Below, piece after piece: positions 4,014 to 53,450 of a stretch of DNA of 64,000 bases. The notes beneath the pieces are model-generated. The model saw only the letters and a list, made by a program, of their open reading frames with translations, made no database searches and was not told the DNA's origin. This stretch comes from Candidatus Woesearchaeota archaeon (lineage in GTDB: Archaea; Nanobdellota; Nanobdellia; Pacearchaeales; GW2011-AR1), in NCBI GenBank assembly GCA_964578345.1, contig CAZOCP010000003.1, positions 1,136 through 65,135 of the forward strand, in the 5' to 3' direction. A program made the translations under genes and the position numbers. Position 1 is the first letter of the stretch; each line of letters begins with the position of its first letter.

Positions 4014-4271
4014 ATGAATAAGATAATTGGTTACATTCTGGCATTACTGGGAATTCTAAGTCTGGCTGTAGGCACAATGCCCCAACTAAGAAAAGCATTA
4101 TCTTTCATTCCGGCAGAAATATCAAACAAAATACTCATTATAGCCGGAGTAGTAATTGTAGTTATCGGCATAATTCTTCTCTACAAAAAAGACTCTGGAA
4201 AAAAACTCGAAGAAGTCCCAATTTATCACGGAAAAGAGATCGTAGGTTATAGAAAGATCAAGCAGAAATAA
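4014..4271 (+). CDS. Small membrane protein (2 TM), hypothetical
   Basis: Hydrophobic segments ILALLGILSLAVG and IIAGVVIVVIGIILL. Confidence 0.4.
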   Translation: MNKIIGYILALLGILSLAVGTMPQLRKALSFIPAEISNKILIIAGVVIVVIGIILLYKKDSGKKLEEVPIYHGKEIVGYRKIKQK

Positions 4272-4295
4272 TAAGAAAATTATATTTCACAGCCG

Positions 4296-4420
4296 TCACA
4301 AAACCCTTCGGGTTTTAACCCCGCACTTTAGTGCGGGGCTTGTTCGTGGTTTTGTGACCGCCGGAGAAATCCTCACAAACAACCCCAGACTAAAGTCTAA
4401 GGATTTCTACGAGCGTTAAA
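4296..4420 (+). ncRNA. Candidate structured RNA/element (copy 1 of 2): UUCG-capped hairpin aaaaccc-ttcg-gggtttt, then ccccgcac-ttta-gtgcgggg, within a long closing helix gtcacaaaac...gttttgtgac
   Basis: Near-identical to 38648-38771. Between the copies the third hairpin carries paired substitutions (cctcggac/gtccgagg in copy 2). Intergenic location. Confidence 0.4.
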
Positions 4421-4441
4421 TAACCAAAATTAGAGAATAAT

Positions 4442-5227
4442 CTAAGAAGTCATTAAATTTTTAAGCTGTTTTTTCTTTAAAGCTATCTCTTCCTTCAAGT
4501 CACGCATCTGTTCAGCACTTGCGTTCCTTAACCTGCTTCGCAGTTCTTTAATTTCCTCAGTAATATCTATGGCCTCTATTCTTTTTGTTCTATCGGCCAT
4601 TTTATTTAAAGAACTCATCAAGAACATCGCATGGATATTCTTATCAAATATCAAAAGCAATGCAGAAATAACTGCAATGGCTGCATAAATCAATGCAAGA
4701 TTATAATACCATTCATTATGCCCAGAAATAAATAATTCATCCCATCTCACATAAGCTAAACCAGTAAATATCACAAGATAAGTAACCCACCCTACTTTCC
4801 TAATAACAGTACTGTCAAATCCTTCAATAAAAAAGAATCCAATAATAAATGGAAGAAAAGATGACAGAGCAATCCCTAAAACACCATAAGGAAGCCAAAT
4901 AAAATCTATCAAATAGTCATTAGTTAAATAGCGAACAGCTATGAGTGAAACAATTAAAGAAATAATAAATGCAAGAGAAGTATTTTCCCCCAATCTAGGA
5001 ATATTCTGAACAGCAGAATTTATAATAGCCAAAAGCAGAATAAAAACCAGAAATTTAATAAAAAGGATTTCCACACCTAAAGAAGAAGTTGATTTATTCT
5101 CAAAACCTCCAAAAGCAAATTCAAGTACATCCACAACGCCATCTGTAAAAGCATTTGCAGACACAAAAGGAATCAAAAAACTACTTGCAAACAAAAATAA
5201 AAAAATAAATGCACCAATCTTTTTCAT
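4442..5227 (-). CDS. Polytopic membrane protein with N-terminal signal and C-terminal coiled-coil tail, hypothetical (paralog of 5310..6098)
   Basis: MKKIGAFIFLFLFASS signal, multiple hydrophobic helices, C-terminal KELRSRLRNASAEQMRDLKEEIALKKKQLKNL. Confidence 0.5.
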   Translation of the reverse strand: MKKIGAFIFLFLFASSFLIPFVSANAFTDGVVDVLEFAFGGFENKSTSSLGVEILFIKFLVFILLLAIINSAVQNIPRLGENTSLAFIISLIVSLIAVRYLTNDYLIDFIWLPYGVLGIALSSFLPFIIGFFFIEGFDSTVIRKVGWVTYLVIFTGLAYVRWDELFISGHNEWYYNLALIYAAIAVISALLLIFDKNIHAMFLMSSLNKMADRTKRIEAIDITEEIKELRSRLRNASAEQMRDLKEEIALKKKQLKNLMTS

Positions 5228-7260: not shown

Positions 7261-7293
7261 AAATAAACTATCAAACTTAAATTAATCCTAAGT

Positions 7294-7462
7294 ATCGCCA
7301 AACCCTCTGTGTTTGTACCTCGCCTCCTCAAGAATCCTTGATTCTTGATAGCCATCAGAAACTCAAAGAGTTTCTCAGCCTCAAAAATCCATAAAAGATT
7401 TTTGACCCGCTCAGGAATCAAAGATTTCTGACGTAAAAGCCGAGTTTTGTTTTCTGTATCAA
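7294..7462. repeat. Hairpin-module repeat, family 1 copy B. The ORF 7227..7421(-) lies inside it and is judged spurious
   Basis: Modules caagaatc-ctt-gattcttg, gaaactc-aaa-gagtttc, caaaaatc-cataaaa-gatttttg, tcaggaatc-aaa-gatttctga. Confidence 0.75.
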
Positions 7463-8841: not shown

Positions 8842-10254
8842 TTACCTTATTCCAAATAATCTTCTAAACCAATTAAGAATTCTCTCAATTAAATTTTGGC
8901 TTACACACTCATTAGATAAACAAACATTACTGCCGCATTCAAAGTGATTATCACATTTTACTCCGGCTTTTAATTGGGATACAAATGCTCCAGAATCAGA
9001 ACAATAGTCATTTATTTTTCTATAACCAAAAGGATAGCATTTATTATCTAATAAACAGGAATCCTTACAAATTACTTCGCCTACTTTTACACAAGCGCCA
9101 TAAGAACAGTCAGTTGGGCATTTATATTCAGTTCTACCTACAGTACCATTAACATTACAAAAACTCTCTATTAATGTATTACCAGTGCATGAATCTTTTG
9201 TGATTGAACCTCCGCCTCCACCACCTCCACCCCCATTACAAGATGGACCTTGATTAGAAGAAGAACCGCTAGAAATTTGACCAAGAGTATAATAATCCTC
9301 TCCTCCATCGCTATCAGAGCAAGTATAAGTTACATTAGAACAAACAGATAAATCATAACTGATTCGATTATAATCGCAGTAGTTTATATTACCAGATTGA
9401 GTATTATACCCAAATTCGCCGCATTTCTGAGTTGTTTCAAGAGGGTTAACACAAGCGCCATTAAAACAGCCATTAGGGCATTTATATTCTGTAAGTACTT
9501 CTACTCCCCCACTGCTGTTTATACCGCAGCTATATTCCCTAAGAAAATTAGAAACGTTCCCCAAACTACAAACATCTTTATATATTCCAAATTTATTGCC
9601 GTCTGTTGTATAATTGATATAACCAGAAAAATAAAATTCCTCTCCGCCATCAGAATCATTGCACATAGCTTTATCTGTCTGAACAGTAAAATAAAGATTT
9701 ATAGTCTTGTCTTTAAACCCATTTGATACCTTAACTTTAACATTTTTTACTCCAGCCTTTGTATACATGCAATTAAAAGTTGAAGATGGATTTCCTGTTA
9801 CAGAAATACCATCAACTCCGCAATCGTGTTGACTAAACGTAATCTCTCCCTTATAAGCATATCCTGATAAATTAGTTACATTAACAGTCCATTGAACTAC
9901 ATCCCCAATTATAACAATCCCAGATTGTGTAGCAGTGACTAAAGGAGGATTTAAGTAAGCAAAAAATTCTTTATTAATGCATCCCCCCTTAATACAAACA
10001 TTCTCATTCCCACAAAATAGATAATGCCCGACTATTGTGGTATTAAGATCTCCGCAAAGATATTCAGTTAGATAATTTCCATTACAATAATCTATAGCAT
10101 TCTTGCCAGGTATACTAACATTCCCACTTATTTCATAATTAATTCCTCCATCGCTATCAATGCATAAAAGAAAGTCGTTTGAAGCTCCTGAAATAAAAGA
10201 ACTAGAAAACAAAACTAAAAAATTCAAAAATAAAATAATTGAAATTCTTTTCAT
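8842..10254 (-). CDS. Secreted Cys-rich protein with repeated C-x-DSDGG-...-DYC-...-EY-C modules and an encoded poly-Gly run
   Basis: Signal peptide MKRISIILFLNFLVLFSSS. Three CxDSDGG modules (CIDSDGGINYEISGNV..DYCNGNYLTEYLCG, CNDSDGGEEFYF.., CSDSDGGEDYYT..). GGGGGGGGG encoded at ~9205-9240. Confidence 0.6.
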   Translation of the reverse strand: MKRISIILFLNFLVLFSSSFISGASNDFLLCIDSDGGINYEISGNVSIPGKNAIDYCNGNYLTEYLCGDLNTTIVGHYLFCGNENVCIKGGCINKEFFAYLNPPLVTATQSGIVIIGDVVQWTVNVTNLSGYAYKGEITFSQHDCGVDGISVTGNPSSTFNCMYTKAGVKNVKVKVSNGFKDKTINLYFTVQTDKAMCNDSDGGEEFYFSGYINYTTDGNKFGIYKDVCSLGNVSNFLREYSCGINSSGGVEVLTEYKCPNGCFNGACVNPLETTQKCGEFGYNTQSGNINYCDYNRISYDLSVCSNVTYTCSDSDGGEDYYTLGQISSGSSSNQGPSCNGGGGGGGGGSITKDSCTGNTLIESFCNVNGTVGRTEYKCPTDCSYGACVKVGEVICKDSCLLDNKCYPFGYRKINDYCSDSGAFVSQLKAGVKCDNHFECGSNVCLSNECVSQNLIERILNWFRRLFGIR

Positions 10255-10399
10255 AAAATAAAGATAAAAATAGTATTGATAAACCTTTCTATACTTGAAT
10301 ACTAAATAAAAGTAATAAAAAATCTAAATATGTTCTGGTAAGCTGGCTTGTGGTTCTGGACTGCCAGAGCTATTTTAATATAGAGAAAATAGTTTATAA

Positions 10400-11212
10400 T
10401 TATTTCTTAAAAAAAATAGACCTTATCCCAGACTCATACTCATCTCTCGCTGCTTCTGAAACATATCTTCTTGAAAACTCTAGGACTTCTGCTAAAGATA
10501 GTGCAGAAATGCTAACTTCTGCTCCAGAAATTCTTTGCGAAGTGCCTTCAGCAGTTCTCAACACCCCATAAGCCGCCTCGTCTTTATCCAAGCCCAACCA
10601 ACCACAATGTAGAACACGATAATGGCCAAACCACAGGTAATTAAAAATTACTTGGCTATTTGAATCTTCGGGAAGATTCTCGAATTCTATTGTTCCTTTA
10701 GTGAATCTATCAAAGTAAGGCTTAGTTTGTTTAGTGAATTCATCAAAGTAAGGCTCAGTTTGCTTTCTAAAGATGAACTGAGATTCAGGCATTTCAGGAG
10801 TTAAAATAAAACATCCTCTTTGTGAAACAATAAGTGCACTTCTGTCTTCAGGAGCCATAGATTCTTGGCTTTTTGCAAGCGCTTCGGCTGCTTCATAAAC
10901 ATCTCTGTTTGTCTCAAAATGCCTTTTGCTTGCATAAGCTCTAACAGCAACAGGAGCCATTAAAGGATTCATCAAGATAGAGTCTCTAACTAAAATAGTT
11001 TTTTTGCCCTTTAGTGCGATAGGTGCCATGCTTGTTCTTGAGTAATCTTTAGAAACACCAGCTAATCGTATCTGAGCAACTTCATCAGGAGCAGCAAGTG
11101 TATGAATGCCTTTATCTGCAAAAGCTCGCAATTGCTTATCTAAAGGCGCAGCTACACGATAAATATCTCCCAAGCCTTCTACGGTTCCTATCTTTTGTGC
11201 TTCATATGTCAT
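10400..11212 (-). CDS. Conserved hypothetical protein, copy 1 of a three-member, compositionally GC-richer paralog family (see 32036..32824 and 60282..60950)
   Basis: N-terminal ~130 aa and last ~57 aa are near-identical to copy 2 at protein and DNA level (last ~170 nt identical). ~100 bp of upstream region is also conserved. Confidence 0.6.
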   Translation of the reverse strand: MTYEAQKIGTVEGLGDIYRVAAPLDKQLRAFADKGIHTLAAPDEVAQIRLAGVSKDYSRTSMAPIALKGKKTILVRDSILMNPLMAPVAVRAYASKRHFETNRDVYEAAEALAKSQESMAPEDRSALIVSQRGCFILTPEMPESQFIFRKQTEPYFDEFTKQTKPYFDRFTKGTIEFENLPEDSNSQVIFNYLWFGHYRVLHCGWLGLDKDEAAYGVLRTAEGTSQRISGAEVSISALSLAEVLEFSRRYVSEAARDEYESGIRSIFFKK

Positions 11213-11411
11213 GCTTTTCTCAAGAATAAAAGGTATTTAAACTTTTCTATTTGTTACTATTTAGAAATTAATTTAGAGTTAAAAACCCTGGGGTTTTGTA
11301 AATTTAATTTCTTCTCAATCCATTCAAAGTTCCGGAAACTTTCAAGAATTGTTTTTTTGCAAACTCCTGACTTTAGTTCGTGAGAAAGCAAAAACAATTC
11401 TTAGCACCACC

Positions 11412-11969: not shown

Positions 11970-12307
11970 GGCCTAATGGGCAAAACAAACTTTATATCTC
12001 TTTCTAAAAAAGATTTTTTTGATGTCAGAAATGCGGTACAAACCGCGGCTTTAGGGCACTGTATTCCTGAGTATCCCAACGTCCCAAACAAACCTCTGCT
12101 TTTAAGTAGAGTTATAACAAAAGGACTTTTTGATGCCAAAGAACTTGATGAAAAAAACACCTTTTAAGATGCGCTTATTTTTTTAATCATTAAAAACCCC
12201 AAAGTCGCTGAAAGCGAGACTATCTATTTTCCGAAGGAAAATCAAGCGCGCTTCCTCTGTGCAAAGAAGGTAACAACAATCACAATTGAGTTGAACTGCT
12301 AATTATC

Positions 12308-22316: not shown

Positions 22317-22501
22317 ACTTAAATTCCATTATTAAAAGAATATACTAGAATAATCATAAACCATCATATTGCTCAACTTAATTTTAATCTTTAATAAACA
22401 TCATAAGTATAGAAAAAATCAGGCGATTTAATCTGACTATGTTCTCTAACCTTCTAGGAGTTATTATATAATCAGAACTATAACTACAATATCAAAAAAA
22501 C

Positions 22502-22888
22502 TTTGCGTTTTACCTCGGCTTTTAAGCCGAGGTTTGTTTGGTTTTTTGGATGCAGAAAAATCCCTGTGATTTTTCTGAACAGAGAATTTCTATCTGAAAT
22601 TCTCTTGTGCTCAAGAATTCATCTGCACACTGAAGTGTGCAGTTTTCTTCTAGAATTCTTGACATCAAAAAAACGATGTGCCACCTCGCCTTAAAAGGCG
22701 AGGTTTGTGATAGGCACTCGTTTCATCAAGGACGAAGTCCTTGAGTGTCATCGAGAATCGGAGATTCTCGAGATTTGGATGCTCAGGAATGCAGCGCCCT
22801 AAAGCCTCAAGAACGAAGTTCTTGATGGCCGTCAAGGATACTCAATCCTTGAGGGGCGCGGTTTTCACCGCATTCTTGACATAAAAAA
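22502..22888. repeat. Tandem pair of family-2 hairpin-module repeats (array of ~10 perfect short hairpins). The ORF 22503..22694 is judged spurious
   Basis: cctcggct-ttta-agccgagg, cagaaaaatc-cctgt-gatttttctg, agagaatttc-tatct-gaaattctct, tgcacact-gaa-gtgtgcag, cctcgcc-ttaaaa-ggcgagg, caaggac-gaa-gtccttg, tcgagaatc-gga-gattctcga, caagaac-gaa-gttcttg. Both units end in cttgacat(c/a)aaaaa. Confidence 0.8.
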
Positions 22889-22954
22889 GTAATAATATTT
22901 ATTATTTTGTAAGCCTTGAGGTATATTTTTAAACCTCTTTGCTTTTGAACAAAA

Positions 22955-23842
22955 ATGAATCAATCTGAGATAGAAAAATTAATAAAATCTGGCTCAATAG
23001 CAAAACAAGTAGTAGAATACGCAAAATCCTTCATAAAACCATCAATGAAACTATTAGAAATAGCTGAAAGAATAGAAGAAAAAATTTATGAGCTTGGCGG
23101 AAAACCTGCTTTTCCAGTTAATCTATCAAAAAACAATATTGCTGCACACTCAACTCCGGTCACTAATGATACAGAAATTGCTGAAGGTTTATTAAAAGTG
23201 GATATTGGAATCCATATTGACGGATATATTGCAGACACTGCATTATCTTTAGATTTAGAGGACAATGAAGAAAATAAAAAATTAATCGAAGCTGCAGAAA
23301 CTGCACTGCAGAAAGCATTAGATGTAATAAATCAAACAAGCACCTTGGGAGAAATAGGAAAAATAATAGAATCGACAATTAAATCTTTTAACTTATCACC
23401 AATTCATAATTTATCCGGCCATTCAATAGAAAAATACAACTTGCACGCAGGAATCACTATTCCAAACTTTGATACAAAGCAAAACAAAAAACTTCTCCCC
23501 GGAATATATGCGATAGAACCCTTCTCCACAAATGGCTTAGGCTCGGTAAAAGAAGGCAGGCTCTCAGGGATTTACATGTTAAAAAAAAGTGGGCAAGTCA
23601 GGGATAAAAACTCCAGAGAAATACTATCATTTATAGAATCAGAATATAAGAGTCTGCCTTTCTGCACGCGCTGGATAGAAAAAAAATTCGGCTCTCGCTC
23701 AATACTTGCCTTGAAAAGAATCGAAGAAGCAGGATTGCTGCATAACTATCCTCTACTCACCGAGATAAGCAACGGTAAAGTAGCACAAGCAGAACATACA
23801 GTAATTTTGACAGAAAATGAAAAGATTATCACAACAAAATAA
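22955..23842 (+). CDS. map: Methionine aminopeptidase, type 2 (archaeal)
   Basis: Collinear with archaeal MetAP2: metal ligands in DIGIHIDGYIADTA, HN..GH, and E...E. Confidence 0.85.
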   Translation: MNQSEIEKLIKSGSIAKQVVEYAKSFIKPSMKLLEIAERIEEKIYELGGKPAFPVNLSKNNIAAHSTPVTNDTEIAEGLLKVDIGIHIDGYIADTALSLDLEDNEENKKLIEAAETALQKALDVINQTSTLGEIGKIIESTIKSFNLSPIHNLSGHSIEKYNLHAGITIPNFDTKQNKKLLPGIYAIEPFSTNGLGSVKEGRLSGIYMLKKSGQVRDKNSREILSFIESEYKSLPFCTRWIEKKFGSRSILALKRIEEAGLLHNYPLLTEISNGKVAQAEHTVILTENEKIITTK

Positions 23843-23851
23843 AACAAATAA

Positions 23852-24607
23852 ATGAAGAAAGAAACTAAAAACAAAATTGAATTATCTTTTATACTAGCAG
23901 AAAGCTGGTTTAAGTTAAAAAATGAGGGGAGTTATATAGGGATTTTTTGGTATTTGCTGAATCCTCTCCTTATTTTTTTGCTGCTTTACACAATATTTTC
24001 AAACAGTTTAGGAAAAAGTATACCTAACTATTCTCTTTATATATTTATAGGAATCAGCATATTTAATCTATTCCAGCAGACAACGCAGGAAGCTACTAAA
24101 GTTATTTTCAATCATAGATGGATTATAAAATCTATCAATATTCCATCACTCTCTCTCATTGGTGCAACAGTAATCAAACAACTATATTCTCACACTATAG
24201 AAATAATTATAATAATAGCATTAATGATAATAGAAAAAGTGCCTTTGATTAATATAATCTTCTACCCTCTAATTTTAATAATTTTCTGTCTTTTCATCTA
24301 TGGAGTGTCTTTGGCTCTTGCTGCACTCACTGTATACTTCTTAGACCTAGAAAATATATGGTCATTTGCAATGCGCTTGCTTTGGCTGGCAACTCCTATA
24401 TTTTATAATCTAGAGGGTCATGCAATCAGTAAAATAAATTTAATAAACCCAATATACTATTTTATAGAAATCAGCCGTAATTTATTAATAAATAGTTCTA
24501 TATCCTGGACTCTCATTTTAGGCGCATTTATTTCAGCACTAGTTTCCCTGATAATTGGAAACTTTATATTTTCTAAACTAAAAAATAAATTTGCAGAACA
24601 CATATAA
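23852..24607 (+). CDS. ABC-2 type polysaccharide/teichoic-acid-type exporter permease (Wzm/TagG-like)
   Basis: 6-TM ABC-2 topology, directly followed by the cognate ATPase. Confidence 0.7.
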   Translation: MKKETKNKIELSFILAESWFKLKNEGSYIGIFWYLLNPLLIFLLLYTIFSNSLGKSIPNYSLYIFIGISIFNLFQQTTQEATKVIFNHRWIIKSINIPSLSLIGATVIKQLYSHTIEIIIIIALMIIEKVPLINIIFYPLILIIFCLFIYGVSLALAALTVYFLDLENIWSFAMRLLWLATPIFYNLEGHAISKINLINPIYYFIEISRNLLINSSISWTLILGAFISALVSLIIGNFIFSKLKNKFAEHI

Positions 24608-25336
24608 ATGGAAAGAATAAAAATAGAAAAAGTGAGCAAGACCTTTAACTTAAGCTTTAAAAAAAACCAGACAGCTCTCCAAAGAACAGTTGCATTTTTT
24701 ACAGAAAAAGAGCAGAAGAAAACACTTACAGTTCTTGAAAATGTATCTCTCTCCGTAAAATCAGGAGAAATAAAAGGATTAATAGGAAGCAACGGTTCAG
24801 GAAAAAGTACTTTATTAAGGATAATTGCAGGAATATATCCTCCAGACTCCGGAAAAATAACCAATACTGGAAAAGTAGTCTCAATTATTAATTTAACAAG
24901 CGGACTACAAGAAAGACTGACAATGAGAGAAAATATATTTCTATGTTGTACATTCTATGGATTATCTATTAAAGAGACAAAAAATAAATTCGATTATATA
25001 GTTTCGTTCTCCGAATTAGAAAAATTTGTTGACACTAGGATATTTCAGTTCTCAAATGGAATGCTGCAGCGCCTTGCATTCTCAATTGCAGTAAATTGCT
25101 TTCCTGAGATCATGCTTCTTGATGAAGTATTTGAAGTAGGAGATGAGAAATTCAGGGAAAAAAGCTCTGAAGAAATAAAAAAACTTGCAAAACAAGGAGT
25201 GGCAATTTTATTGGTAAGCCATGATATGCATTTAATAGAAAAACATTGCCATAAAGTTATTTGGCTTAGCAATGGCAAGATTAAGAAGGAAGGAGAAACT
25301 AAAAAAGTAGTGAAAGGATATTTAGCAGAAAACTAA
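24608..25336 (+). CDS. ABC transporter ATP-binding protein (Wzt/TagH/KpsT-like, short form)
   Basis: Walker A GSNGSGKST, signature FSNGMLQRLAFS, Walker B IMLLDE. Confidence 0.8.
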   Translation: MERIKIEKVSKTFNLSFKKNQTALQRTVAFFTEKEQKKTLTVLENVSLSVKSGEIKGLIGSNGSGKSTLLRIIAGIYPPDSGKITNTGKVVSIINLTSGLQERLTMRENIFLCCTFYGLSIKETKNKFDYIVSFSELEKFVDTRIFQFSNGMLQRLAFSIAVNCFPEIMLLDEVFEVGDEKFREKSSEEIKKLAKQGVAILLVSHDMHLIEKHCHKVIWLSNGKIKKEGETKKVVKGYLAEN

Positions 25337-26256
25337 AGAAGGAAATTTCTTTCTAAATATCCTTTAAGAACACCTAAGCGCCAACCGCAGTCAAAAATAA
25401 TATTAAAATAACTTTCAGAGATTGGTTTTCTAAATAATTCAGAAACTATCCACTTGGGATAGAACAAATAAGACTTAAAAGAAATTCCGCTAAAAATAAT
25501 CTCTTTACCAATAGATTCATCTAAAGAATAATGCTTTCGAAAAATTTTATAAATCCAATATCCTCTATTAAAATTTAGCCGTGCTGCTTTTAAAACTGTA
25601 GACTTATGATGATGTCCGACCCTCACATCAGGAATAAACTTTATATGGGCATGTTTTCTAGAGCGTAAATAAAAATCTACATCTTCTAAATTAAATATCA
25701 TAGAATCAAACATTATTTTTTTAGCAAGAGATGTGAGAATTGCAAAATTTTTTGTGTCCAAATGCCTTATATATTCTCCAAGTACAAACTGTCTCAAAAA
25801 TTCTTTATTTGCACGCTGAATTTGCCTTGTTGAATAACTTTGAATAACATCTTTTTCATACCCCATAGTAATTTTGGCGTATTCTTCACGAATAGGCTTT
25901 GTTAATTCAAAAAGCCAATTTTTAGGAATTATACAATCTGAATCGGTCATTGCAATAATTTTTCCATGGGCGGCTCTAATCCCGGCATTTCGCGCAGCTC
26001 CACGAGAACGAAATGGTTCAAAAATATATCTAACTTTTTTATTCTGGCGGGAAAATCTCTCAATAATTTCTTTTGTCTTATCAGTTGAATTATTATCTAC
26101 GGCAATAACTTCATAATTTCTATAAGTTTGGCTGAGAATAGAAGACAAACATTTTTCTAAAGTCTCGCCCCCATTAAAAACAGGAATAACTGCTGAAATT
26201 TTAGGATTTTTCATAAATCTTCTCTTTAATTTTTTTAATAAAAATTTTTGTATCAA
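25333..26256 (-). CDS. Glycosyltransferase family 2
   Basis: ISAVIPVFNGGETLEKCLSSILSQTY..YEVIAVDNNSTD with a DSD motif. True start may be the internal Met 14 codons downstream, which reduces the overlap with the upstream gene. Confidence 0.75.
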   Translation of the reverse strand: MIQKFLLKKLKRRFMKNPKISAVIPVFNGGETLEKCLSSILSQTYRNYEVIAVDNNSTDKTKEIIERFSRQNKKVRYIFEPFRSRGAARNAGIRAAHGKIIAMTDSDCIIPKNWLFELTKPIREEYAKITMGYEKDVIQSYSTRQIQRANKEFLRQFVLGEYIRHLDTKNFAILTSLAKKIMFDSMIFNLEDVDFYLRSRKHAHIKFIPDVRVGHHHKSTVLKAARLNFNRGYWIYKIFRKHYSLDESIGKEIIFSGISFKSYLFYPKWIVSELFRKPISESYFNIIFDCGWRLGVLKGYLERNFLL

Positions 26257-27289
26257 ACTTTTTAGCCTGTTTTAAACAGTCATTCTTATATATAAAAGGA
26301 TTCTCTCCTATTTTATTAATAGCTGATTTAAGTGTTGAAACATTAATATCATCAATTAAGATTCCTGTTTTACCATTTACAATACTTTCTTTATACCCTC
26401 CTTCATTAGGTGCTATTACCGGTTTTCCCGATGCCATAGCTTCTACTGCATTCATGCCAAAATCTTCGTTGTGTGACGTAGTGATAAAACCTTTGCATGT
26501 TGCGTACAGCTCTCTCAATCTATCAGCATCCACCCAGCTCAAAATTTTCACATGAGAAGGAGCGATGCGCTTGATATATGAAACATATTGCTGAAAATGA
26601 GCAGACTGCTCATAACTCCCTACTACAACCAATTGTTCTTGGGGAAGCTGAGCAAACGCGTGCATCTGCAAATCAATTCTCTTATGAGCAATAAGTCTAT
26701 TCACACTCAACCAGAAATCTCCATTTTTCTGATAATAAAAAAGCGAAGTATCTATAGGGGGATATACCACTAAGGCATTTCTTCCAAGATAACGATGAAT
26801 TCTTACTTGTACGTTCTTCGAATTACAAACTATTTTATCAACTTCTCTCACATATTTTCTATACAAAGACCTGTTCCAAAATACCCAAGCATCGAAAGGC
26901 CAGCGCTTATACCATTCAACAATGTAAGTTCGAGTGTAATGGTATAAATCCCATAGCTCTCGCGGAGGTGAATGCACATACCAAAGATTAGGTTTATTCT
27001 GTAAAGCACCAGACACTGCCCAATCCCCTCCAATAATATAAAAATCATATTTTTTTCCAAGATTCAGAGTTCTAAACCGAAACAAGGCCATTTGCTGACG
27101 AAAAGGAGCCTGAAGAGGTATACTCCCTATAGAAATAACTTTCACATTAGCAAACCCCATTTTTCGTATCTTCTCTCTATCAATATTAGTTGTGTATATA
27201 TCGGCTCGTAATTCTCGAGCTAAGGTCAAACACACCATCTCTGCACCTCCGATGTTGTCCATAAAATTATGGAAGATAGCTATCTTCAT
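26201..27289 (-). CDS. Glycosyltransferase family 4 (GT-B)
   Basis: N-terminal GGAEMVCLTLAREL, C-terminal E..G...VEAMASGKPVIA motif. Confidence 0.75.
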   Translation of the reverse strand: MKIAIFHNFMDNIGGAEMVCLTLARELRADIYTTNIDREKIRKMGFANVKVISIGSIPLQAPFRQQMALFRFRTLNLGKKYDFYIIGGDWAVSGALQNKPNLWYVHSPPRELWDLYHYTRTYIVEWYKRWPFDAWVFWNRSLYRKYVREVDKIVCNSKNVQVRIHRYLGRNALVVYPPIDTSLFYYQKNGDFWLSVNRLIAHKRIDLQMHAFAQLPQEQLVVVGSYEQSAHFQQYVSYIKRIAPSHVKILSWVDADRLRELYATCKGFITTSHNEDFGMNAVEAMASGKPVIAPNEGGYKESIVNGKTGILIDDINVSTLKSAINKIGENPFIYKNDCLKQAKKFDTKIFIKKIKEKIYEKS

Positions 27290-27345
27290 AGAAGCTCTGC
27301 CAACTCTGCCCCTTTATTAAATTGCATTGTATTGAAGTCTATAAT

Positions 27346-28608
27346 TCATTTTATCATATTTAGGAGAGTTGATATGTTCTTCTTATTTAATTTCTGATAA
27401 TTTTTTGAAAATTTATAGGCTCCTGTTGTTAGATTTCTATAAAGCTTATGGTCAGTAAGTATTCTGATTACTGCGTTTGAAAAAGATTCAGGGTCATCTG
27501 CAACCAAAAATGCTTTGTTCTTTCTATCTAAACCTTCGGCACTATGAGATGTCATAACTATCGGCTTGGAATAACTGAGCGCTTCAACAACTTTTATTTT
27601 CAAGCCAGTACCTACATAAAGCGGGCTTATCACCACATCAGCACTATCATAAAATTTCGCAATGTTTTTTACTTCCCCTAATACCTTACAGCCTTCTACT
27701 GCTTTAATTTTATGGCCTATATTCCCTGCTAAAATAAGTCTTACATTTGGCAAATGCATTTTTATCCTGGAAAAAATATTTTTAATAAAAAAGTTTACAC
27801 CATGAATATTTGCTTTATTTCCTGATCCTAAAAAAGCAATATTGTTTCCTACTTTAGTTTTTTGAGGTTTTTTTAAGGAAGTGATATGTCCTATTATAAT
27901 CACGGGCTTTTTTGTCAAGGTTCTCAAGAATTTTGCTTCTTCTTTTTGGATAGCAATAATTATATCCGCTCTTTTAATGCCTCTCGCCTCTTCTGATATT
28001 GTTGTCGAAAAAAAATCTTCAAATATTCTTTTCTTGCTATATTTTTTATTTCTATTTGTAAATACATCATGAGTATCTATAATCTTAACCACTTCATTGC
28101 CTACCGCCTCTAATGCTCTTGACATAAATACATATTCAACCATTATAGCATCATAAATATATTTTGCATGCATTTTTTTAATCCTGTAATCAAGACTAAT
28201 ATCATAAAATCTGTCTAAACCTGTATTTTTTCTTTTCATAGGGTATAGAGTAGAAAAAGCATCTGGAAAATAAGGCTTGAGTTCCCTATATAACTCTGAA
28301 AAATATTTTTTAATAAGTTTTCCTGCTATTCCAGAAGTGTAGTGAAAAAGAGCATCGGCACGCTGAAAAAAGTTAGGAGAATTAAGAGGAACATACACAA
28401 AATTATCCCAAAATAATTTCATAGCCGGAATATCTGGTTTTCTCTCCACATGGTTGCTGTGACGCTCACGATCCCAATAAAGAAAATGAACTTCATAACC
28501 TCTTTTTTGTATTGATGATGCAAGAGCGTAAATGCGTGCACGGTTTCCTGCATTTTGTGGATGGCTGGGAGTAGGTGAAATAATAAGAATTCTTTTCCGC
28601 TCTTTCAT
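27346..28608 (-). CDS. Glycosyltransferase, GT-B fold (GT4-like)
   Basis: PTPSHPQNAGNRARIYALASSI N-terminus, C-terminal GT-B domain (SPLYVGTGLKIKVVEALSYSKPIV). Confidence 0.6.
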   Translation of the reverse strand: MKERKRILIISPTPSHPQNAGNRARIYALASSIQKRGYEVHFLYWDRERHSNHVERKPDIPAMKLFWDNFVYVPLNSPNFFQRADALFHYTSGIAGKLIKKYFSELYRELKPYFPDAFSTLYPMKRKNTGLDRFYDISLDYRIKKMHAKYIYDAIMVEYVFMSRALEAVGNEVVKIIDTHDVFTNRNKKYSKKRIFEDFFSTTISEEARGIKRADIIIAIQKEEAKFLRTLTKKPVIIIGHITSLKKPQKTKVGNNIAFLGSGNKANIHGVNFFIKNIFSRIKMHLPNVRLILAGNIGHKIKAVEGCKVLGEVKNIAKFYDSADVVISPLYVGTGLKIKVVEALSYSKPIVMTSHSAEGLDRKNKAFLVADDPESFSNAVIRILTDHKLYRNLTTGAYKFSKNYQKLNKKNISTLLNMIK

Positions 28609-28679
28609 TATCTTTAATAGTTTTTCCTTTTATAAGTTTATTCATGAATATAAATCAACAATAAATCTATGTGTAAATC

Positions 28680-29867
28680 TTAGTGCCTCTTTATTCCCAG
28701 CACGCTCAGCATAAAACCAGAAAAAAAGGTTTGCACTCCTAAAACCACTAAAGTCAGAGCAATAATTGCATTTTTTACTTCTTGTAACTCACCAAAACCA
28801 CTCTGCAACCACTGGATAAAAATAGACAAGTACATAATAGCGCTAATACCAGCCATAGCTAAACCACTCATGAGCGCTTTTTCTAAAGTTATATGCCTGA
28901 GAAAAAAAGCCATAGAACTGCTCTTCTCTTCTAAGTAAATCATAGAATAAGTTTTAGCAAAAAATCCAAAGAAGATAAGTTGATAACCGACGATGATAAG
29001 CATAGAAGAAAGAAACATAGGATGATAGAATAACTCTACACCAACAACCCGTCCTCCACCTAAATAGAGTATAAGCATACTCACTAGACCTAAAAGAAAA
29101 AGTCCAATGCCTGGCAGCAGAAAAAGGTAGAGAGGGCTGTACAATAATAAGAAACGCAAATGTCTCCATCCATCAGAGAGCGTCTTCAACTTAGACCGCC
29201 CGCACCGACGATGATAAACAATAGGAAGCTCTGCTATGGTAAGTTTTTTCTTGACTGCCTGTACAATCATCTCTGAAGCAAATTCCATTCCTGTCGTATG
29301 CAAAGACAATTTTTTCCATGCACCCTTGGTGATAGCCCGCATCCCACAATGCACATCCTTCACCTTTGCACTAAAAAAGAGCCGCAGAAGAAAGGAAAGC
29401 GCAGGATTTCCAATCCATTTATGTGTAAGAGGCATCGCGCCTTTCTCCATCTTTCCTGCAAACCGATCGCCAACAACCATATCTGCTCCCTGCCGCAATG
29501 CATCAACAAAACGAGGAATCTCAGCAAAATCATAGCTCCCGTCTGCATCAGCAAGAAACAAATACTTTCCTCTCGCAGCTTTCAGTCCTTCCATACAAGC
29601 AATACCATAACCTTCCTTATCATGCTTTACCACTCTCGCTCCCAAACGTCTGGAAATATTTGGAGAAGAATCAGAAGAAGAATCAGAAACAATTATCTCT
29701 CCAATAATATTATTCTCTCTAAAAACTTTCTTAATTAATTGTATACACCCGCCAACTGCTTCCTCTTCATCCCTGCACGGCAAAATCACGCTTACTTCAG
29801 GAACCCCATCTAAAAAATTTCTATTCACCATTTTAACTAATAAATATATTATATAAATATTATTCAA
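28680..29867 (-). CDS. Membrane-anchored GT2 glycosyltransferase (dolichyl/polyprenyl-phosphate sugar synthase-like, C-terminal TM domain). Compositionally GC-richer than neighbours
   Basis: VSVILPCRDEEEAV...IIVSDSSSDSS, DAD motif, four C-terminal TM helices. Many spurious overlapping ORFs in other frames reflect the higher GC. Confidence 0.7.
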   Translation of the reverse strand: MNNIYIIYLLVKMVNRNFLDGVPEVSVILPCRDEEEAVGGCIQLIKKVFRENNIIGEIIVSDSSSDSSPNISRRLGARVVKHDKEGYGIACMEGLKAARGKYLFLADADGSYDFAEIPRFVDALRQGADMVVGDRFAGKMEKGAMPLTHKWIGNPALSFLLRLFFSAKVKDVHCGMRAITKGAWKKLSLHTTGMEFASEMIVQAVKKKLTIAELPIVYHRRCGRSKLKTLSDGWRHLRFLLLYSPLYLFLLPGIGLFLLGLVSMLILYLGGGRVVGVELFYHPMFLSSMLIIVGYQLIFFGFFAKTYSMIYLEEKSSSMAFFLRHITLEKALMSGLAMAGISAIMYLSIFIQWLQSGFGELQEVKNAIIALTLVVLGVQTFFSGFMLSVLGIKRH

Positions 29868-29875
29868 TCAAAAAC

Positions 29876-31309
29876 TCATCTCTTATATACATATCTTCTG
29901 TTATTAAAGACTAATTCCCAGCCGCAGTCAATCGGTTCCCTTGAAAAAACATATTCAACCTCCTGCTCTTCAAGAATATCTTCTTTTACATCGCATTCAG
30001 AAGAAAAAAACAAATCAACTGCTTCTCCATTGCCATAAAAATATAAAGCTCCGACAGGTTCATGCCCAGTCAATGCATAGAGTGCATTTGAAACATCTTT
30101 CGGAGCCATAACTTTAGTATGTTTAAGTTCAGATAAATAATCTAAAGCTTCAAGGTCAGAATCCTCAATTAAATGATATATTTTAAGGCCAGAAGGCAGC
30201 TCATAATAAGAAACAAAAGAAGATAAAAGGAAAAGCACAATTAAAAGAAAAGATAAAAATCTATTAAAAATAAATTTAGCATTAGATATATAGTATTTGT
30301 TGCTCGCAAATTTTTCAATTATTAAATTCATTCCAAAAGCACTAAGCAATGGAAGACTAAGTGCAAAATAATATAAATTTCTCTGATAGGGAGAAAAATA
30401 AGAAACATCTATCACTCTATATAAAAAAATAGATAAAAGAAGCATAAGAGGCCAAAATAAATAAGTAATATAAGAAACTCTTTTCAATTTAGAAAAAACA
30501 AGATAAAAAAATCCTATAAAAGCCAGAAAATATCCTATTAAACTATAAATCTCAAAAAAAGAATTATCAAGCTCGAAGATAGTCCAGCCTGTTTTAAATT
30601 GTAAGGCAGAAAAGATATTTATAAATAACTCAGAAAAATTTAGATTAAACAATTGTTTGTAAAATAACGCTCCGGTAACAGGGATAAAAATAAATAAAGA
30701 GAAAAATTTCCACTCTTTAAATATATATGAACGGTAGTAAAAAGCTGTGAAAATTAAAAACATAGCTGAAAAAAAAACAGATATAGAGTGTACAAAAATA
30801 AGAAAAAACATAATTCCAAAACTGATGAGAATATATTTCTTATTTTCACGCGCTAATCCTTCACTAAAAAAATGTATATACAAAAAAATAAATGGTATCG
30901 AGAAAGTTAAAGGTGTAAAAAACCACAATCCTAAGATATTAACATTTGATTTAATTGATGCGAAAAAAATCATGGCGAAAAAAGAAATCCAGAAATTTCT
31001 GCTCTTCTTCATAACAACATAAAAAAGAGTCAAGCTGGAAAAAACAGCCCATATTGCAGGCAGAAACTTATACACTGAAATTAAATCAAAAAATTTTGAC
31101 AATAAATATAAAAATAAATGAAATCCTATTTCTAGCCCAAAGCTCCCAGATGTATATTCTCCGCTTCCTAATTTCAAAGCCTCAGTTATATGATGCCATT
31201 CATCAACATGCAAAGGATAAGGATAAGAAAAATGAGGGGCATAAACTAGAAAAAATATTCCAATTCCTGCTAAAATAACTAAAAAATATTTATATCTATC
31301 AATTATCAT
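29876..31309 (-). CDS. Polytopic GT-C-type glycosyltransferase (PMT/ArnT-like), putative
   Basis: More than 10 TM helices. First-loop motif HVDEWHHITEAL resembles the DE motif of GT39/GT83. No WWDYG motif, so it is not AglB. Confidence 0.4.
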   Translation of the reverse strand: MIIDRYKYFLVILAGIGIFFLVYAPHFSYPYPLHVDEWHHITEALKLGSGEYTSGSFGLEIGFHLFLYLLSKFFDLISVYKFLPAIWAVFSSLTLFYVVMKKSRNFWISFFAMIFFASIKSNVNILGLWFFTPLTFSIPFIFLYIHFFSEGLARENKKYILISFGIMFFLIFVHSISVFFSAMFLIFTAFYYRSYIFKEWKFFSLFIFIPVTGALFYKQLFNLNFSELFINIFSALQFKTGWTIFELDNSFFEIYSLIGYFLAFIGFFYLVFSKLKRVSYITYLFWPLMLLLSIFLYRVIDVSYFSPYQRNLYYFALSLPLLSAFGMNLIIEKFASNKYYISNAKFIFNRFLSFLLIVLFLLSSFVSYYELPSGLKIYHLIEDSDLEALDYLSELKHTKVMAPKDVSNALYALTGHEPVGALYFYGNGEAVDLFFSSECDVKEDILEEQEVEYVFSREPIDCGWELVFNNRRYVYKR

Positions 31310-31444
31310 TTAATAATTCCGAATCATTAATATAAATAAGTTTTGAGCTGCGGCCCTTCGCAGCCAAAAATTCACTGAGTATTAAAGTTCGCGGCTCCCT
31401 AAATCATAAAAGTCGAAGGGTTTTTAACCTTGAATCAATTTCTA

Positions 31445-31639
31445 TTACTCATATACGCGTTCTCTTTTATCAATCTTGACAATACCTATCTGTTTATGAA
31501 CATAATCTACTTCATATAGGATTCTTACTTTTCCAACTCGTATCCTAAAAAGACTATCTCCTTCTATTCGTTTCATATCGTGTGGAAAAGGGTTGTTTTG
31601 CAACTCTTCTAATTTCTCCGCTATTCTTCTCACAAGCAC
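31445..31639 (-). CDS. RelE/ParE-family toxin
   Basis: FRIRVGKVRILYEVDYVHKQIGIVKIDKRERVY is the RelE/ParE core. Confidence 0.7.
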   Translation of the reverse strand: MLVRRIAEKLEELQNNPFPHDMKRIEGDSLFRIRVGKVRILYEVDYVHKQIGIVKIDKRERVYE

Positions 31640-31694
31640 CTTATCAGTATTTTTAGAAATTTAAGGGCTTGGTTTGAATAGAATAGCTCAAACA

Positions 31695-31895
31695 TTATAG
31701 CCCAAGTTCTTTTTTAAGTTGTTTGTGCGAAATAAACTTTCCTTCCTTCTTCTCTGCGTGATATGCTCGCAAAGCCTCGATATCTTCTCCAGTAAGTGAA
31801 GTATCTTCTAAGTATTCTTTCAAATAAGTAATATCAGCTTCCAATTTAGCCAACTTTGCTAAAATTTCTTTGTTAACATTCATTGATTGTTCCAT
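31695..31895 (-). CDS. Putative antitoxin of the RelE/ParE module
   Basis: Small acidic helical protein immediately upstream of the toxin on the same strand. Confidence 0.5.
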   Translation of the reverse strand: MEQSMNVNKEILAKLAKLEADITYLKEYLEDTSLTGEDIEALRAYHAEKKEGKFISHKQLKKELGL

Positions 31896-32006
31896 ACTCT
31901 TTTTATGACTCTAAAGTTTTTAAACTCTTTCTTTGCATTTTATGGTCTAAATCACAAAACCCCGGGGTTTTTAACTTTAATTTCTAAATAGTAACAAATA
32001 GAAAGG

Positions 32007-32014
32007 TTTAAATA
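32007..32014 (+). promoter_or_regulatory. TATA box (tttaaata) of the paralog-family gene, ~26 bp upstream of the ATG (leaderless-type spacing)
   Basis: Conserved upstream of copy 1 (reverse strand ~11235) and partly upstream of copy 3 (tttaaatacctcttattc). Confidence 0.4.
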
Positions 32015-32035
32015 TCTCTTATTCTCAAAAAAAGC

Positions 32036-32824
32036 ATGACATATGAAGCACAAAAGATAGGAACGGTAGAAGGCTTGGGAGATATTTACTATGTAGCTGC
32101 GCCTTTAGATGAGCAATTGCGAGCTTTTGCAGATAAAGGCATTCATACACTTGCTGCTCCTGATGAAGTTGCTCAAATATATTTAGCTGGTGTTTCTGAA
32201 GATTACTCAAGAACAAGCATGGTATTTATTGTACTAAAGGGCGGAAAAACTATTTTAGTTAGAGACTCTATTTTGATGGCTCCTTTAATGGCTTTTGCTG
32301 CTGTTAGAGATCATGCAAGTGGAAGGTATTTTGAGACAAGTAAGGGGGTTTATGAGGCAGCTGAAGCGCTCGCAAGAAGCCAAGAATCTATGGCTCCTGA
32401 AGACAGAAGCACACTTATTGTTTCACGAGAGGAAGATTTGACTTTAACTCCTGAAATGCCTGAATCTCAGTTCATCTTTAGAAAGCAAACTAAGCCTTAC
32501 TTTGATAAATTCAATAAAAAAGCAATAAATTTCTATAATCCTCACGGATATTCAAATAGTCGGGCAATTATTAATTACATGTGGTTTGGCTCTCCTCCGA
32601 ACAATCGTGATCTAGATTGTAGTCTCTTGGGCTTGGACAAAAAAAGAGCGGCTTATGGGGTGTTGAGAACTGCTGAAGGCACTTCGCAAAGAATTTCTGG
32701 AGCAGAAGTTAGCATTTCTGCACTATCTTTAGCAGAAGTCCTAGAGTTTTCAAGAAGATATGTTTCAGAAGCAGCGAGAGATGAGTATGAGTCTGGGATA
32801 AGGTCTATTTTTTTTAAGAAATAA
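32036..32824 (+). CDS. Conserved hypothetical protein, copy 2 of the three-member paralog family
   Basis: MTYEAQKIGTVEGLGDIY.VAAPLD.QLRAFADKGIHTLAAPDEVAQI... shared with copies 1 and 3. Its stop lies 11 nt from the cdc48 stop (convergent). Confidence 0.6.
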   Translation: MTYEAQKIGTVEGLGDIYYVAAPLDEQLRAFADKGIHTLAAPDEVAQIYLAGVSEDYSRTSMVFIVLKGGKTILVRDSILMAPLMAFAAVRDHASGRYFETSKGVYEAAEALARSQESMAPEDRSTLIVSREEDLTLTPEMPESQFIFRKQTKPYFDKFNKKAINFYNPHGYSNSRAIINYMWFGSPPNNRDLDCSLLGLDKKRAAYGVLRTAEGTSQRISGAEVSISALSLAEVLEFSRRYVSEAARDEYESGIRSIFFKK

Positions 32825-32835
32825 TTATAAACTAT

Positions 32836-37855: not shown

Positions 37856-37942
37856 TGATCCCGCCAAGAATTGAACTTGGGACCTCTGCCTTCCTGATAA
37901 ACATTATCAGAGCAGCGCTCTAACCAACTGAGCTACGGGATC
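37856..37942 (-). tRNA. tRNA-Ile (anticodon GAU) with 13-nt intron at 37/38
   Basis: Reverse complement: GATCCCG TA GCTC AGTTGGTTA GAGC G CTGCT CTGATA[ATGTTTATCAGGA]A GGCAG AGGTC CCAAG TTCAATT CTTGG CGGGATC A. Perfect 7-bp acceptor, T-loop TTCAATT, palindromic ctgataa/ttatcag (BHB-like). Confidence 0.8.
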
Positions 37943-38436: not shown

Positions 38437-38507
38437 GCGCCGTTAGTATAGTGGCAGTATTCAAGCTTCCCAAGCTTGCCGCGCGGGTTCGATTCCCGCA
38501 CGGCGCA
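38437..38507 (+). tRNA. tRNA-Gly (anticodon CCC)
   Basis: GCGCCGT...CAAGC TTCCCAA GCTTG ... GCGGG TTCGATT CCCGC ACGGCGC A. Perfect acceptor and anticodon stems. No encoded CCA. Confidence 0.8.
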
Positions 38508-38647
38508 TTGATAATTGTGCGGGAAGAATTCACTTTGTACTCGTCAGAGTCAAAAGTTCCCAAGGAGCTTGCTCTGCGTGGACCGCACGGCGCATGACTA
38601 AGGCGCATAGCTCAGAGCTTGGTTTGTATGAATCGCGCAGCGTATCT

Positions 38648-38771
38648 GTCACAAAACCCTTCGGGTTTAACCCCGCACTAAAGTATGGGGTTTGTTCGTG
38701 GTTTTGTGACCGCCGGAGAAATCCTCACAAACAACCTCGGACTAAAGTCCGAGGATTTCTACGAGCGTTAA
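38648..38771 (+). ncRNA. Candidate structured RNA/element, copy 2 of the ~125-nt UUCG-hairpin element. The ORF 38594..38800 is judged spurious
   Basis: Near-identical to 4296-4420. Copy-2-specific cctcggac-taaa-gtccgagg perfect hairpin. Confidence 0.4.
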
Positions 38772-38835
38772 AGAATAGAAACAATTACAATAGAATTTAA
38801 ATATACAACTCCCCTGATAAAAAAATGAGATTTAG

Positions 38836-53377: not shown

Positions 53378-53378
53378 T

Positions 53379-53450
53379 GGGCCCATAGTTTAGTGGATAG
53401 AATGACAGGCTTCGGACCTGTAGACCGGGGTTCAATTCCTCGTGGGCCTG
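53379..53450 (+). tRNA. tRNA-Arg (anticodon UCG)
   Basis: GGGCCCA TA GTTT AGTGGATAG AAT G ACAGG CTTCGGA CCTGT AGAC CGGGG TTCAATT CCTCG TGGGCCT G. Confidence 0.75.

Follow-up and report, generated by a model that had tools for sequence, protein, structure and literature searches.

Locus and fold of the repeat unit

DPANN archaea, whose genomes are very small and streamlined, have come to light almost exclusively through metagenomes. We analysed a 64,000-nt stretch of one such genome, that of a Candidatus Woesearchaeota archaeon (hereafter the window), in which a 123-nt repeat unit, named type A, occurs twice. The window was compared with sequence stretches from other metagenome-assembled genomes (MAGs) and metagenome contigs, which carry L-numbers (L004, L012, L033, etc.). 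The window belongs to a 71-kb metagenome contig (ENA ERZ27284378). Among its genes are archaeal housekeeping genes, including those for PolB, Trm5, a HerA-like protein, GatB, GatD, ProRS, deoxyhypusine synthase, and NAD synthase, and the nearest Trm5 homologues, with 66% identity, come from Pacearchaeota and Nanoarchaeota MAGs, which places the organism among the DPANN archaea. Copy 1 of type A spans 4295-4417 (+), from GTCACAAAACC to TTTCTACGAGCGTT, between two convergent genes for predicted membrane proteins at 4014-4271 (+) and 4442-5227 (-). Copy 2 spans 38648-38769 (+) and starts 140 nt downstream of tRNA-Gly (38437-38507). The copies are in direct orientation, 34,352 nt apart; they are 91.9% identical across the unit, and their surrounding flanks are unrelated. 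A first-pass annotation made from the sequence alone had described two near-identical copies in just these settings, and our coordinates bear it out. The ends of copy 1 were set by the point at which the flanks of more than 20 copies diverge. For the first 21 nt of the unit, GTCACAAAACCCTTCGGGTTT, shuffled sequences gave an expectation of 0 chance matches.

The surroundings of copy 2 hold some further features. An open reading frame (ORF) of 68 codons at 38594-38800 (+) crosses the copy and is almost certainly spurious. The spacer between tRNA-Gly and copy 2 (38508-38647; 140 nt, GC-rich) has no significant structure (z = -0.37). The last 12 nt of tRNA-Gly, ccgcacggcgca (38496-38507), recur 77 nt downstream at 38584-38595, after a T-arm-like gcgtgga, and may be a relic of an old integration at the tRNA 3' end.

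The unit of copy 1 folds into two domains. The left domain (4295-4358, +) is formed by the helix P1 (4295-4305 pairing with 4348-4358) around an internal loop and hairpin 2 (4319-4326/4331-4338). The right domain (4359-4415, +) is formed by the helix P3 (4359-4374/4399-4415), which has one G·A mismatch and one bulged A, together with an A-rich 5' bulge (4375-4382) and hairpin 3 (4383-4402); hairpin 3 is perfect in copy 2 (38735-38754). The closing helix and both hairpins named in the first-pass annotation, the latter at 4319-4338 and 4383-4402, are present. The annotation had also placed an aaaccc-UUCG-gggttt hairpin alongside the closing helix, and these two are mutually exclusive because both use 4300-4305. 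Its UUCG tetraloop, taken as a hallmark of stable RNA, was a misreading; in register the mini-hairpin AAAACCC-TTC-GGGTTTT (4300-4316, +) is a 7-bp stem with a UUC triloop and not C(UUCG)G. This mini-hairpin competes with P1 for bases 4300-4305 and is less supported in the family. It is one C-G pair shorter in CCTTCGG variants, has an A·C mismatch in the L009, L020, L022 group, and is absent from type B, a related unit that shares the left-domain architecture.

The substitutions between the two window copies had been proposed to hit both strands of the stems. In hairpin 3, with four differences in total, this is right for one pair, which is compensatory (A-T versus G-C), and wrong for the remaining two, which are C·A mismatches in copy 1. 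The GC-to-AT change of hairpin 2 in copy 2 affects a single arm and leaves a weaker stem with G·U plus C·A. The covariation evidence from the two window copies alone is weak; the strong evidence comes from the wider family.

The first-pass annotation had suggested a covariance-model search and a survey of compensatory changes across more copies. The covariance model R1, built from nine uninterrupted type A copies, scores copy 1 at 145.6 bits and copy 2 at 140.3 bits and retrieves diverged members in the window (at 61070 and 22492) and in other genomes (L005:1360, L018:2853, and L009:6152). The RNAalifold consensus of the nine copies comprises P1 of 11 bp, hairpin 2 of 8 bp, P3 of ~15 bp with the G·A mismatch, the bulged A, and the A-rich 5' bulge inside it, and hairpin 3. 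Against dinucleotide shuffles, the two window copies fold with z = -6.0 and -5.7 and the minus strand with z = -5.9; the minus strand of copy 1 folds better than the plus strand (-58.6 vs -51.4 kcal/mol). Variants of P1 remain paired, with AAAACC/GGTTTT replaced by AAAGCC/GGCTTT, AAAGTCC/GGACTTT, or AAAGTTCC/GGAACTTT, and the P3 strand GGAGAAATCCTC changes to GGAAAAATCTCC or GGCGAAAGCCTC while its partner strand changes to match. In a 30-row alignment that covers about 30 family members, 96.0% of cells pair compared with 82.4% in shuffles, 34 of 38 pairs show changes on both sides, slid controls pair in 28-50%, and none of 500 shuffles matches any observed measure. This alignment was fitted to the model and includes one reverse-strand artefact and rows with non-homologous left halves. 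After their removal, 95% of cells are Watson-Crick, and at least two Watson-Crick types occur in 6 of 11 pairs of P1, 6 of 8 of hairpin 2, 11 of 15 of P3, and 4 of 4 of hairpin 3. The fold is real, and its pairing is kept through compensatory changes.

The spacer after hairpin 2 (4339-4347, +; CTTGTTCGT) is a candidate long-range partner of the A-rich CACAAACAA (4374-4382). Its sequence CTTGTTCGTG is complementary to this P3 bulge, and the partners vary together across copies, reading UUGUCG/CGACAA in L010, UUGUUAGUG/CACUAAUA in L020, and UUUCG/CGAAA in L011. The mean duplex energy is -4.66 kcal/mol within the own copy and -3.31 kcal/mol in cross-pairings (permutation p = 0.004, without correction for relatedness). 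Short direct repeats also mark the unit. GGTTTT brackets hairpin 2 in type A units (e.g., 4310-4315 and 4348-4353), and CCTC before the A-rich bulge appears again at the start of hairpin 3 (e.g., 4371-4374 and 4383-4386). Such repeats permit alternative pairing registers and could be footprints of nested insertions or substrates of slippage deletion, as in L012:2623.

We considered an RNA-type strand asymmetry and rejected it, since the raw excess of G·U over A·C mismatches (25 vs 15) vanished after removal of the reverse-strand artefact and the non-homologous left halves (12 vs 13). RNA and single-stranded DNA are not distinguishable by this count because the two mismatches are equally frequent. 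The balance gives no sign of selection on one transcribed strand, and the fold could equally act in single-stranded DNA. An Rfam 15 search with both copies at E up to 10 returned sub-threshold noise only (best weak match 19.3 bits against a cut-off of 39.8), and this non-match covers the known ribozymes, C/D and H/ACA small RNAs, and Hgc RNAs.

Dispersal and occupancy between genomes

The 22-mer TGTGACCGCCGGAGAAATCCTC, located at the junction of the unit halves, matches exactly at 20 places, spread over 19 stretches of six MAGs that are labeled Woesearchaeota, Pacearchaeota, or Nanoarchaeota; ten matches are in one MAG and six in another. The match lies within ~110 nt of a contig end in 7 of the 19 stretches, as expected because repeats break assemblies. 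One Logan contig of the window's own organism terminates at window position 4356, within copy 1, and another corresponds to 22905-32006 and has repeats at both of its ends. A gapped pattern search added eight further stretches from JGI and ENA metagenome contigs. Two gapped patterns had no match in the IMG/VR viral contigs, and on this search a virus or plasmid origin is unsupported.

Every copy starts with GTCAC and ends with (G/A)AGC(G/A)T(T/G), so the type A unit has sharp ends (GTCAC...GAGCGTT), and the flanks are unrelated beyond them. No target-site duplication of two to ten nucleotides was found in the flanks of the 23 copies compared. Terminal inverted repeats are absent, the ends GTCACAAAACC and TTTCTACGAGCGTT not being complementary, and the variable 5' flanks of type A contain no constant target motif. 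All copies are intergenic. Their spacers may be convergent, tandem, or divergent, and the element can point either way relative to the neighboring genes; in ~9 of 23 copies the 3' end of the element faces the 3' end of a convergent gene. The distance from a stop codon to the element is 0-1 nt in L009, L022, and L012. Five copies (L004, L012:2623, L018:4789, L021, and L022) are followed by a same-strand ATG 19-27 nt past the element, with junctions that read TTAAATAT, TTTATATA, or TTTATAAT (GAGCGTT plus AAATAT or TATATA), and the first 7 nt downstream of type A copies (+1 to +7) are 80-90% A/T. Judging from these junctions, the type A 3' end may be part of, or inserted beside, the TATA box of a leaderless gene. 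The 3' end of the unit, ...CTACGAGCGTT, continues into A-rich sequence and has no T-run, so it does not qualify as an intrinsic terminator. A positioned TATA-like box was not found in the upstream flanks of type A copies. The unit lacks the appearance of a gene driven by a promoter of its own, and it may be transcribed passively inside neighboring transcripts.

Orthologous sites differ in whether they carry the element. A diverged copy at L005:1360-1479 fills a divergent promoter spacer of 161 nt, whereas the orthologous spacer in another MAG (L012:3741-3782) is empty and 42 nt long; the shortfall corresponds to the 120-nt element, and the genes on either side are ~70% identical in nucleotides. 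The spacer of copy 1 (4272-4441) measures 170 nt between convergent stops, and the orthologous gene pair is 30 nt apart in L033 and 0 nt apart in L035, the site being empty in both. The window, L033, and L035 share the order PolB ... two membrane proteins ... 85-aa protein ... Trm5 ... HerA. Identity to the L033 counterpart is 47% for the 85-aa protein, and the ~260-aa protein shares 29% identity with its equivalent in L035. The covariance model found no copy in L033 or L035. Perfect GC-containing hairpins of at least 8 bp number 23 in the window, where ~2 are expected, and zero in L033 and L035 (12.8 kb each). Because these two stretches have neither copies nor such hairpins, the whole hairpin-repeat population is lineage-specific. 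A third comparison of filled and empty sites, L013 with L028, was uninformative.

Copy 2 of the window is 91.1% identical to L004 and 91.2% to L016, which belong to other MAGs, and 91.9% to copy 1; L004 and L014, from the same MAG, are 83.9% identical. The first-pass annotation had called the element a candidate small structured RNA. Its conserved secondary structure stands, but a discrete small-RNA gene is unsupported, since the element is a dispersed multi-copy repeat that is absent at orthologous sites.

Nested modules, related units, and other window features

Several copies contain further modules. Inserts occur in the hairpin-2 loop after CTAAAG (L006, L010, L012, and L021, the last holding a third level within its insert), in the hairpin-3 loop after TTAAAA (L019 and L022), in the A-rich P3 bulge, which hosts a type B unit (L008 and L015), and in the P1-P3 linker (L023-L028). 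Type A is itself placed in the loop of another hairpin in L014 and L007. The six distinct insertion kinds map to unpaired positions, 38% of those in the fold, and one type B case instead lies between stacked stem halves. Nested small modules are preceded by TAAAG or TAAAA in 6 of 6 cases, several of which may share ancestry. Either insertion targets the unpaired regions of the folded strand, or only such insertions survive. Hairpin 2 is missing in L012:2623-2710 and L030, the segment being bounded by the direct GGTTTT repeat in the full unit, and the right domain is joined to other left halves in L026:3659-3773 and L017. The small modules have a constant foot, TCA(A/G)GAA...TTC(C/T)TGA, with covarying inner stems. 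Their loops are mostly 3 nt (e.g., GAA, AAA, GGA, and CTT), and in an uncounted reading GNRA or UNCG tetraloops were not prominent among them.

Type B occurs at 61070-61174 (+; repeat family D4, R1 score 54.3 bits) as ATCATAAAGTCC...GGACTTTGGGAT around ACCTCGGC-TTTTAA-GCCGAGGT, followed by a 17-bp hairpin. At 22492-22890 (+; 44.8 bits) a type B unit precedes an array of ~10 hairpin modules, some of which are nested, either in loops or between the two halves of a stem, and a type B relative lies at 12020-12140 (-; inverted-repeat pairs I6 and I11). The repeats that the first-pass annotation called family 1 are similar in build. The one at 7266-7449 (+) combines a type-B-like head with hairpin 2 (ACCTCGCC...TAAAAGCCGAG), whose loop holds four small hairpins; its sisters lie at 57540-57810 and 1267-1433, and 53237-53370 contains a partial inverted copy (families D2, D10, and D15, pair I9). 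Family 1 belongs to the same superfamily as type A and type B. The annotation had also noticed near-copies of the head, and these were located, with AAATCACAAAACCCCGGGGTTTTTAAC at 31949-31975, its reverse complement at ~11270-11304, and a weaker one at 31400-31444. The first is a solo head fragment extending over 31949-31983 (+; pairs I12 and I14), ~60 nt upstream of the gene at 32036-32824, and its counterparts are those at 11270-11304 (-) and, weaker, at 31400-31444.

That gene belongs to a three-copy paralog family of 223-270 aa whose DNA is ~90% identical, the upstream region included in two copies. The repeat units span 10378-11304 (-), 31949-32846 (+), and 60282-60950 (+), and the genes 10400-11212 (-), 32036-32824, and 60282-60950. 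No significant Pfam or PHROG match was found for the family, and a multi-copy orphan gene is unusual for a streamlined DPANN genome. The palindrome ATCACAAAACCCCGGGGTTTTTAAC upstream of the paralog genes resembles the 5' head of the repeat family. A role of the paralog as mobilizing enzyme or parent insertion sequence (IS) is unsupported, as it has in common with type A only the 25-nt upstream head palindrome and no 3' end.

At the Rfam gathering threshold, the whole window contains four tRNA genes only. The 125-nt tRNA at 40672-40796 (+) is matched by Rfam and missed by ARAGORN, presumably due to an intron, and the 87-nt tRNA at 37856-37942 (-), called "Tyr (ata)" by ARAGORN, is probably a miscall of an intron-containing or long-arm tRNA. 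The array of hairpin modules at 53237-53370, which includes a 14-bp hairpin, stops ~8 nt short of tRNA-Arg (53378-53451), so the promoter of this tRNA must lie within or come from the repeat array. A 470-aa ORF at 8842-10254 (-) encodes a repetitive protein; it has internal DNA repeats at 342-501 nt spacing (families D8 and D9) and no Pfam or PHROG match.

Interpretation and comparison with known systems

We consider it likely that the unit is a non-autonomous, structured mobile repeat, built from hairpins and present in many intergenic copies in a subset of DPANN archaea, similar to the repetitive extragenic palindromes (REPs) and bacterial interspersed mosaic elements (BIMEs) of bacteria. 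Copy number, dispersal, presence or absence at orthologous sites, fold, and nesting are all observed directly. The family is apparently undescribed; no description of it was found in the literature on DPANN, Pacearchaeota, and archaeal REP or miniature inverted-repeat transposable elements (MITEs). The unit would be copied or recognized as a folded single strand, most likely single-stranded DNA. A trans-acting, structure-specific recombinase or nuclease would handle this strand, comparable to the REP/BIME-RAYT pairs and the IS200/IS605-derived elements. The fold would then be maintained since only correctly folded copies propagate or are tolerated, and further modules may land preferentially, or be tolerated only, in the unpaired regions of folded copies. 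A more elaborate version is that the two-domain folded single strand, with its spacer-bulge tertiary pairing, is both mobile and a landing platform for hairpin modules that insert into loops and bulges. We regard this version as tentative and rather improbable. If true, it would mean structure-targeted mobility on single-stranded DNA or RNA, which is not described in archaea and which an unrecognized enzyme might serve, with nesting up to three levels; the 90% between-genome conservation would reflect a host-level function.

Several observations weigh against a mobile repeat. No mobilizing enzyme was found; a tblastn search of 317 kb with an IS608 TnpA sequence, which is a weak test, gave nothing at E <0.6. 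The window genes with precomputed Pfam annotation are housekeeping or defence-type, and none is a transposase. Copies are not clustered by genome, with identities of 84-92% within genomes and 88-91% between them, while the GatB protein is 69% identical between the window and the MAG of L004 and L014, and neutral spacers are unalignable. The unit is thus far better conserved than the sequence around it. A recent selfish burst fits this pattern less well than does horizontal spread or long-term purifying selection on a useful sequence. In the case of purifying selection, the selecting agent would be either the host or a copying machinery that takes correct copies only. Insertion into unpaired regions only could reflect selection on a functional fold and not targeting, and the candidate spacer-bulge pairing, a lead and not a result, would fit a compact functional RNA.

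These points also bear on the reading of the unit as a many-copy family of trans-acting structured small RNAs, in which the two-domain fold and the loop-bulge tertiary contact are functional and the loops tolerate expansion segments. The strong covariation, the 88-91% copy identity between genomes in which GatB is at 69%, the conserved unpaired motifs (TTTTAA, YTTGTT, and the A-rich bulge), the candidate pairing with p = 0.004, and the restriction of insertions to unpaired regions all suit such RNAs. However, the upstream flanks are unrelated and have no positioned promoter, the unit takes either orientation to its neighbors and sometimes sits 0-1 nt past a stop codon, syntenic relatives lack it, and it matches no Rfam family. 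G·U mismatches are not in excess over A·C, the minus strand folds equally well or better, and the small modules have mostly 3-nt loops (GAA, AAA, and CTT). We regard the small-RNA reading as rather unlikely. An element acting in cis on host transcripts or chromatin appears somewhat less probable again. It would be a 3'-end stabilizer, terminator, or insulator, or else a portable promoter piece in which GAGCGTT plus AAATA or TATATA serves as the TATA box of the downstream gene. The intergenic position of all copies would agree with it, as would the stop codons 0-1 nt away in L009, L022, and L012, the five same-strand ATGs 19-27 nt downstream, and the A/T content of +1 to +7. The missing T-run after the hairpins and the occurrence in convergent, tandem, and divergent spacers in both orientations disagree with it. 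For the promoter variant in particular, the 3' end of ~9 of 23 copies faces that of a convergent gene, a place in which a promoter would have no purpose, and the TATA-to-ATG spacing of the window genes (~33-36 nt) is longer than in the five ATG-proximal copies.

An orphan part of an IS200/IS605-type element, either a guide-RNA scaffold (omega RNA/right end) or a palindrome-associated transposable element (PATE), used in trans by TnpB or TnpA, is improbable in our view. It would account for several features. Hairpins lie at both ends, with neither a terminal inverted repeat nor a target duplication; the 3' end is sharp, and the sequence beyond it varies; a pseudoknot is possible; and TAAAG or TAAAA precedes nested modules in six cases. 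But none of the copies is located at a tnpB-sized ORF's 3' end, the weak search described above gave no TnpA-like sequence, the type A 5' flanks share no target motif, and 123 nt leaves little room for both a left end and an omega RNA scaffold. It is hardly credible that a 34-kb integrated element lies beside tRNA-Gly with the two window copies as its attL/attR-type direct repeats, even if two direct repeats 34,352 nt apart, one near a tRNA gene, and the recurrence of ccgcacggcgca at 38584-38595 might suggest it. The interval contains chromosomal genes (PolB, FEN1-like, and glycosyltransferases) plus an ABC transporter, and no integrase was seen in its annotated parts. The unit occurs at least 20 times in other genomes with unrelated flanks, and copy 1 is a simple 123-nt insertion across which the PolB...Trm5 synteny continues in relatives. 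Such a 34-kb island was rejected on account of the chromosomal genes inside it and the multi-copy occurrence of the unit elsewhere.

A mobile structured repeat of this kind would have practical and biological consequences. The repeats fill many intergenic spacers of these DPANN genomes and break assemblies, and contigs in several MAGs end in the element. They are also a trap for the calling of non-coding RNAs and small ORFs, as the 68-codon ORF over copy 2 illustrates. An archaeal analogue of REP/BIME with loop-directed nesting and no recognizable transposase would indicate an unknown mobilizing activity; if transcribed, the unit would instead indicate a new class of conserved archaeal RNA. 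Under either reading, the 88-91% identity of the unit compared with 60-70% for housekeeping proteins requires explanation.

Defining features exclude the unit from REP, MITE, omega RNA, H/ACA, and every Rfam family. A TnpB omega RNA was rejected because the copies do not lie at a tnpB 3' end and the upstream same-strand ORFs have 85-377 aa at inconsistent distances. In place of an H/ACA box, the sequence after P1 is CGCC in type A and GCT, GCA, ACC, or ACT in relatives, with ACA only in L018, and hairpin 2, a perfect 8-bp stem without tandem G·A pairs, forms no K-turn or K-loop. For the C/D and hammerhead readings, the defining boxes or genomic contexts are absent. Archaeal MITEs (e.g., of Sulfolobus and haloarchaea) are likewise small, non-coding, multi-copy, and mobile in archaeal chromosomes, and type A has this character together with presence or absence at orthologous sites. 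Classical MITEs, however, show terminal inverted repeats and target duplications that match those of a parent IS; the unit has neither and is therefore not a MITE, and no parent element sharing the type A ends was found. BOX of Streptococcus pneumoniae, the enterobacterial repetitive intergenic consensus or intergenic repeat units (ERIC/IRU), and the Correia elements of Neisseria resemble the unit in being intergenic, multi-copy, ~100-200 nt long, and stably folded by prediction, and in their modular build with internal insertion variants at fixed positions; they are sometimes co-transcribed with neighbors and have mRNA effects. All of them are bacterial and none has three-level hairpin-in-loop nesting, and Correia has terminal inverted repeats and a TA duplication, both of which are absent here.

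REP/BIME-type systems are, to our knowledge, well worked out in bacteria only. REPINs are mobilized by RAYT, a Y1 HUH transposase; no RAYT was found here by the same weak search of 317 kb (nothing at E <0.6 with the IS608 TnpA). The likeness lies in short extragenic hairpins in high copy (8-9 bp stems with mostly 3-nt loops here; 23 window hairpins against ~2 expected, and at least ten type A copies in one MAG), covarying stems over a constant short foot (TCA...TGA here), mosaic composite units and clusters, the lack of target duplications and terminal inverted repeats, and presence or absence at orthologous sites. REP hairpins carry a conserved GTAG or CGTC tetranucleotide at one end (PMC3733652). 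This tag is absent from the unit, whose feet are TCA(A/G)GAA...TTC(C/T)TGA, GTCAC...GTGAC, or ACCNCG...CGNGGT, so it is not a REP in the strict sense. The host also differs, being an archaeon of the DPANN group, and the unit is a fixed two-domain composite of 123 nt. Its modules are nested in loops, whereas those of REP/BIME stand side by side in alternating orientation, and its copies do not form genome-specific clouds, between-genome identity being equal to within-genome identity. PATEs and other IS200/IS605-derived elements, including the small non-coding repeats of Deinococcus, differ in having a cognate TnpA/TnpB, which was not identified here; type A, with its variable 5' flanks, showed no constant tetra- or pentanucleotide on that side, while nested small modules do follow TAAAG or TAAAA, and the hairpin feet are at the very ends of the unit. 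They are alike in having hairpins at or near both ends (P1 and P3 here) without inverted terminal repeats or target duplication, and their structure-dependent, strand-specific single-stranded DNA chemistry would explain both the conserved fold and the insertions at unpaired sites. By analogy, the type A unit is most likely closest in kind to the bacterial REP/BIME or the IS200/IS605-derived elements.

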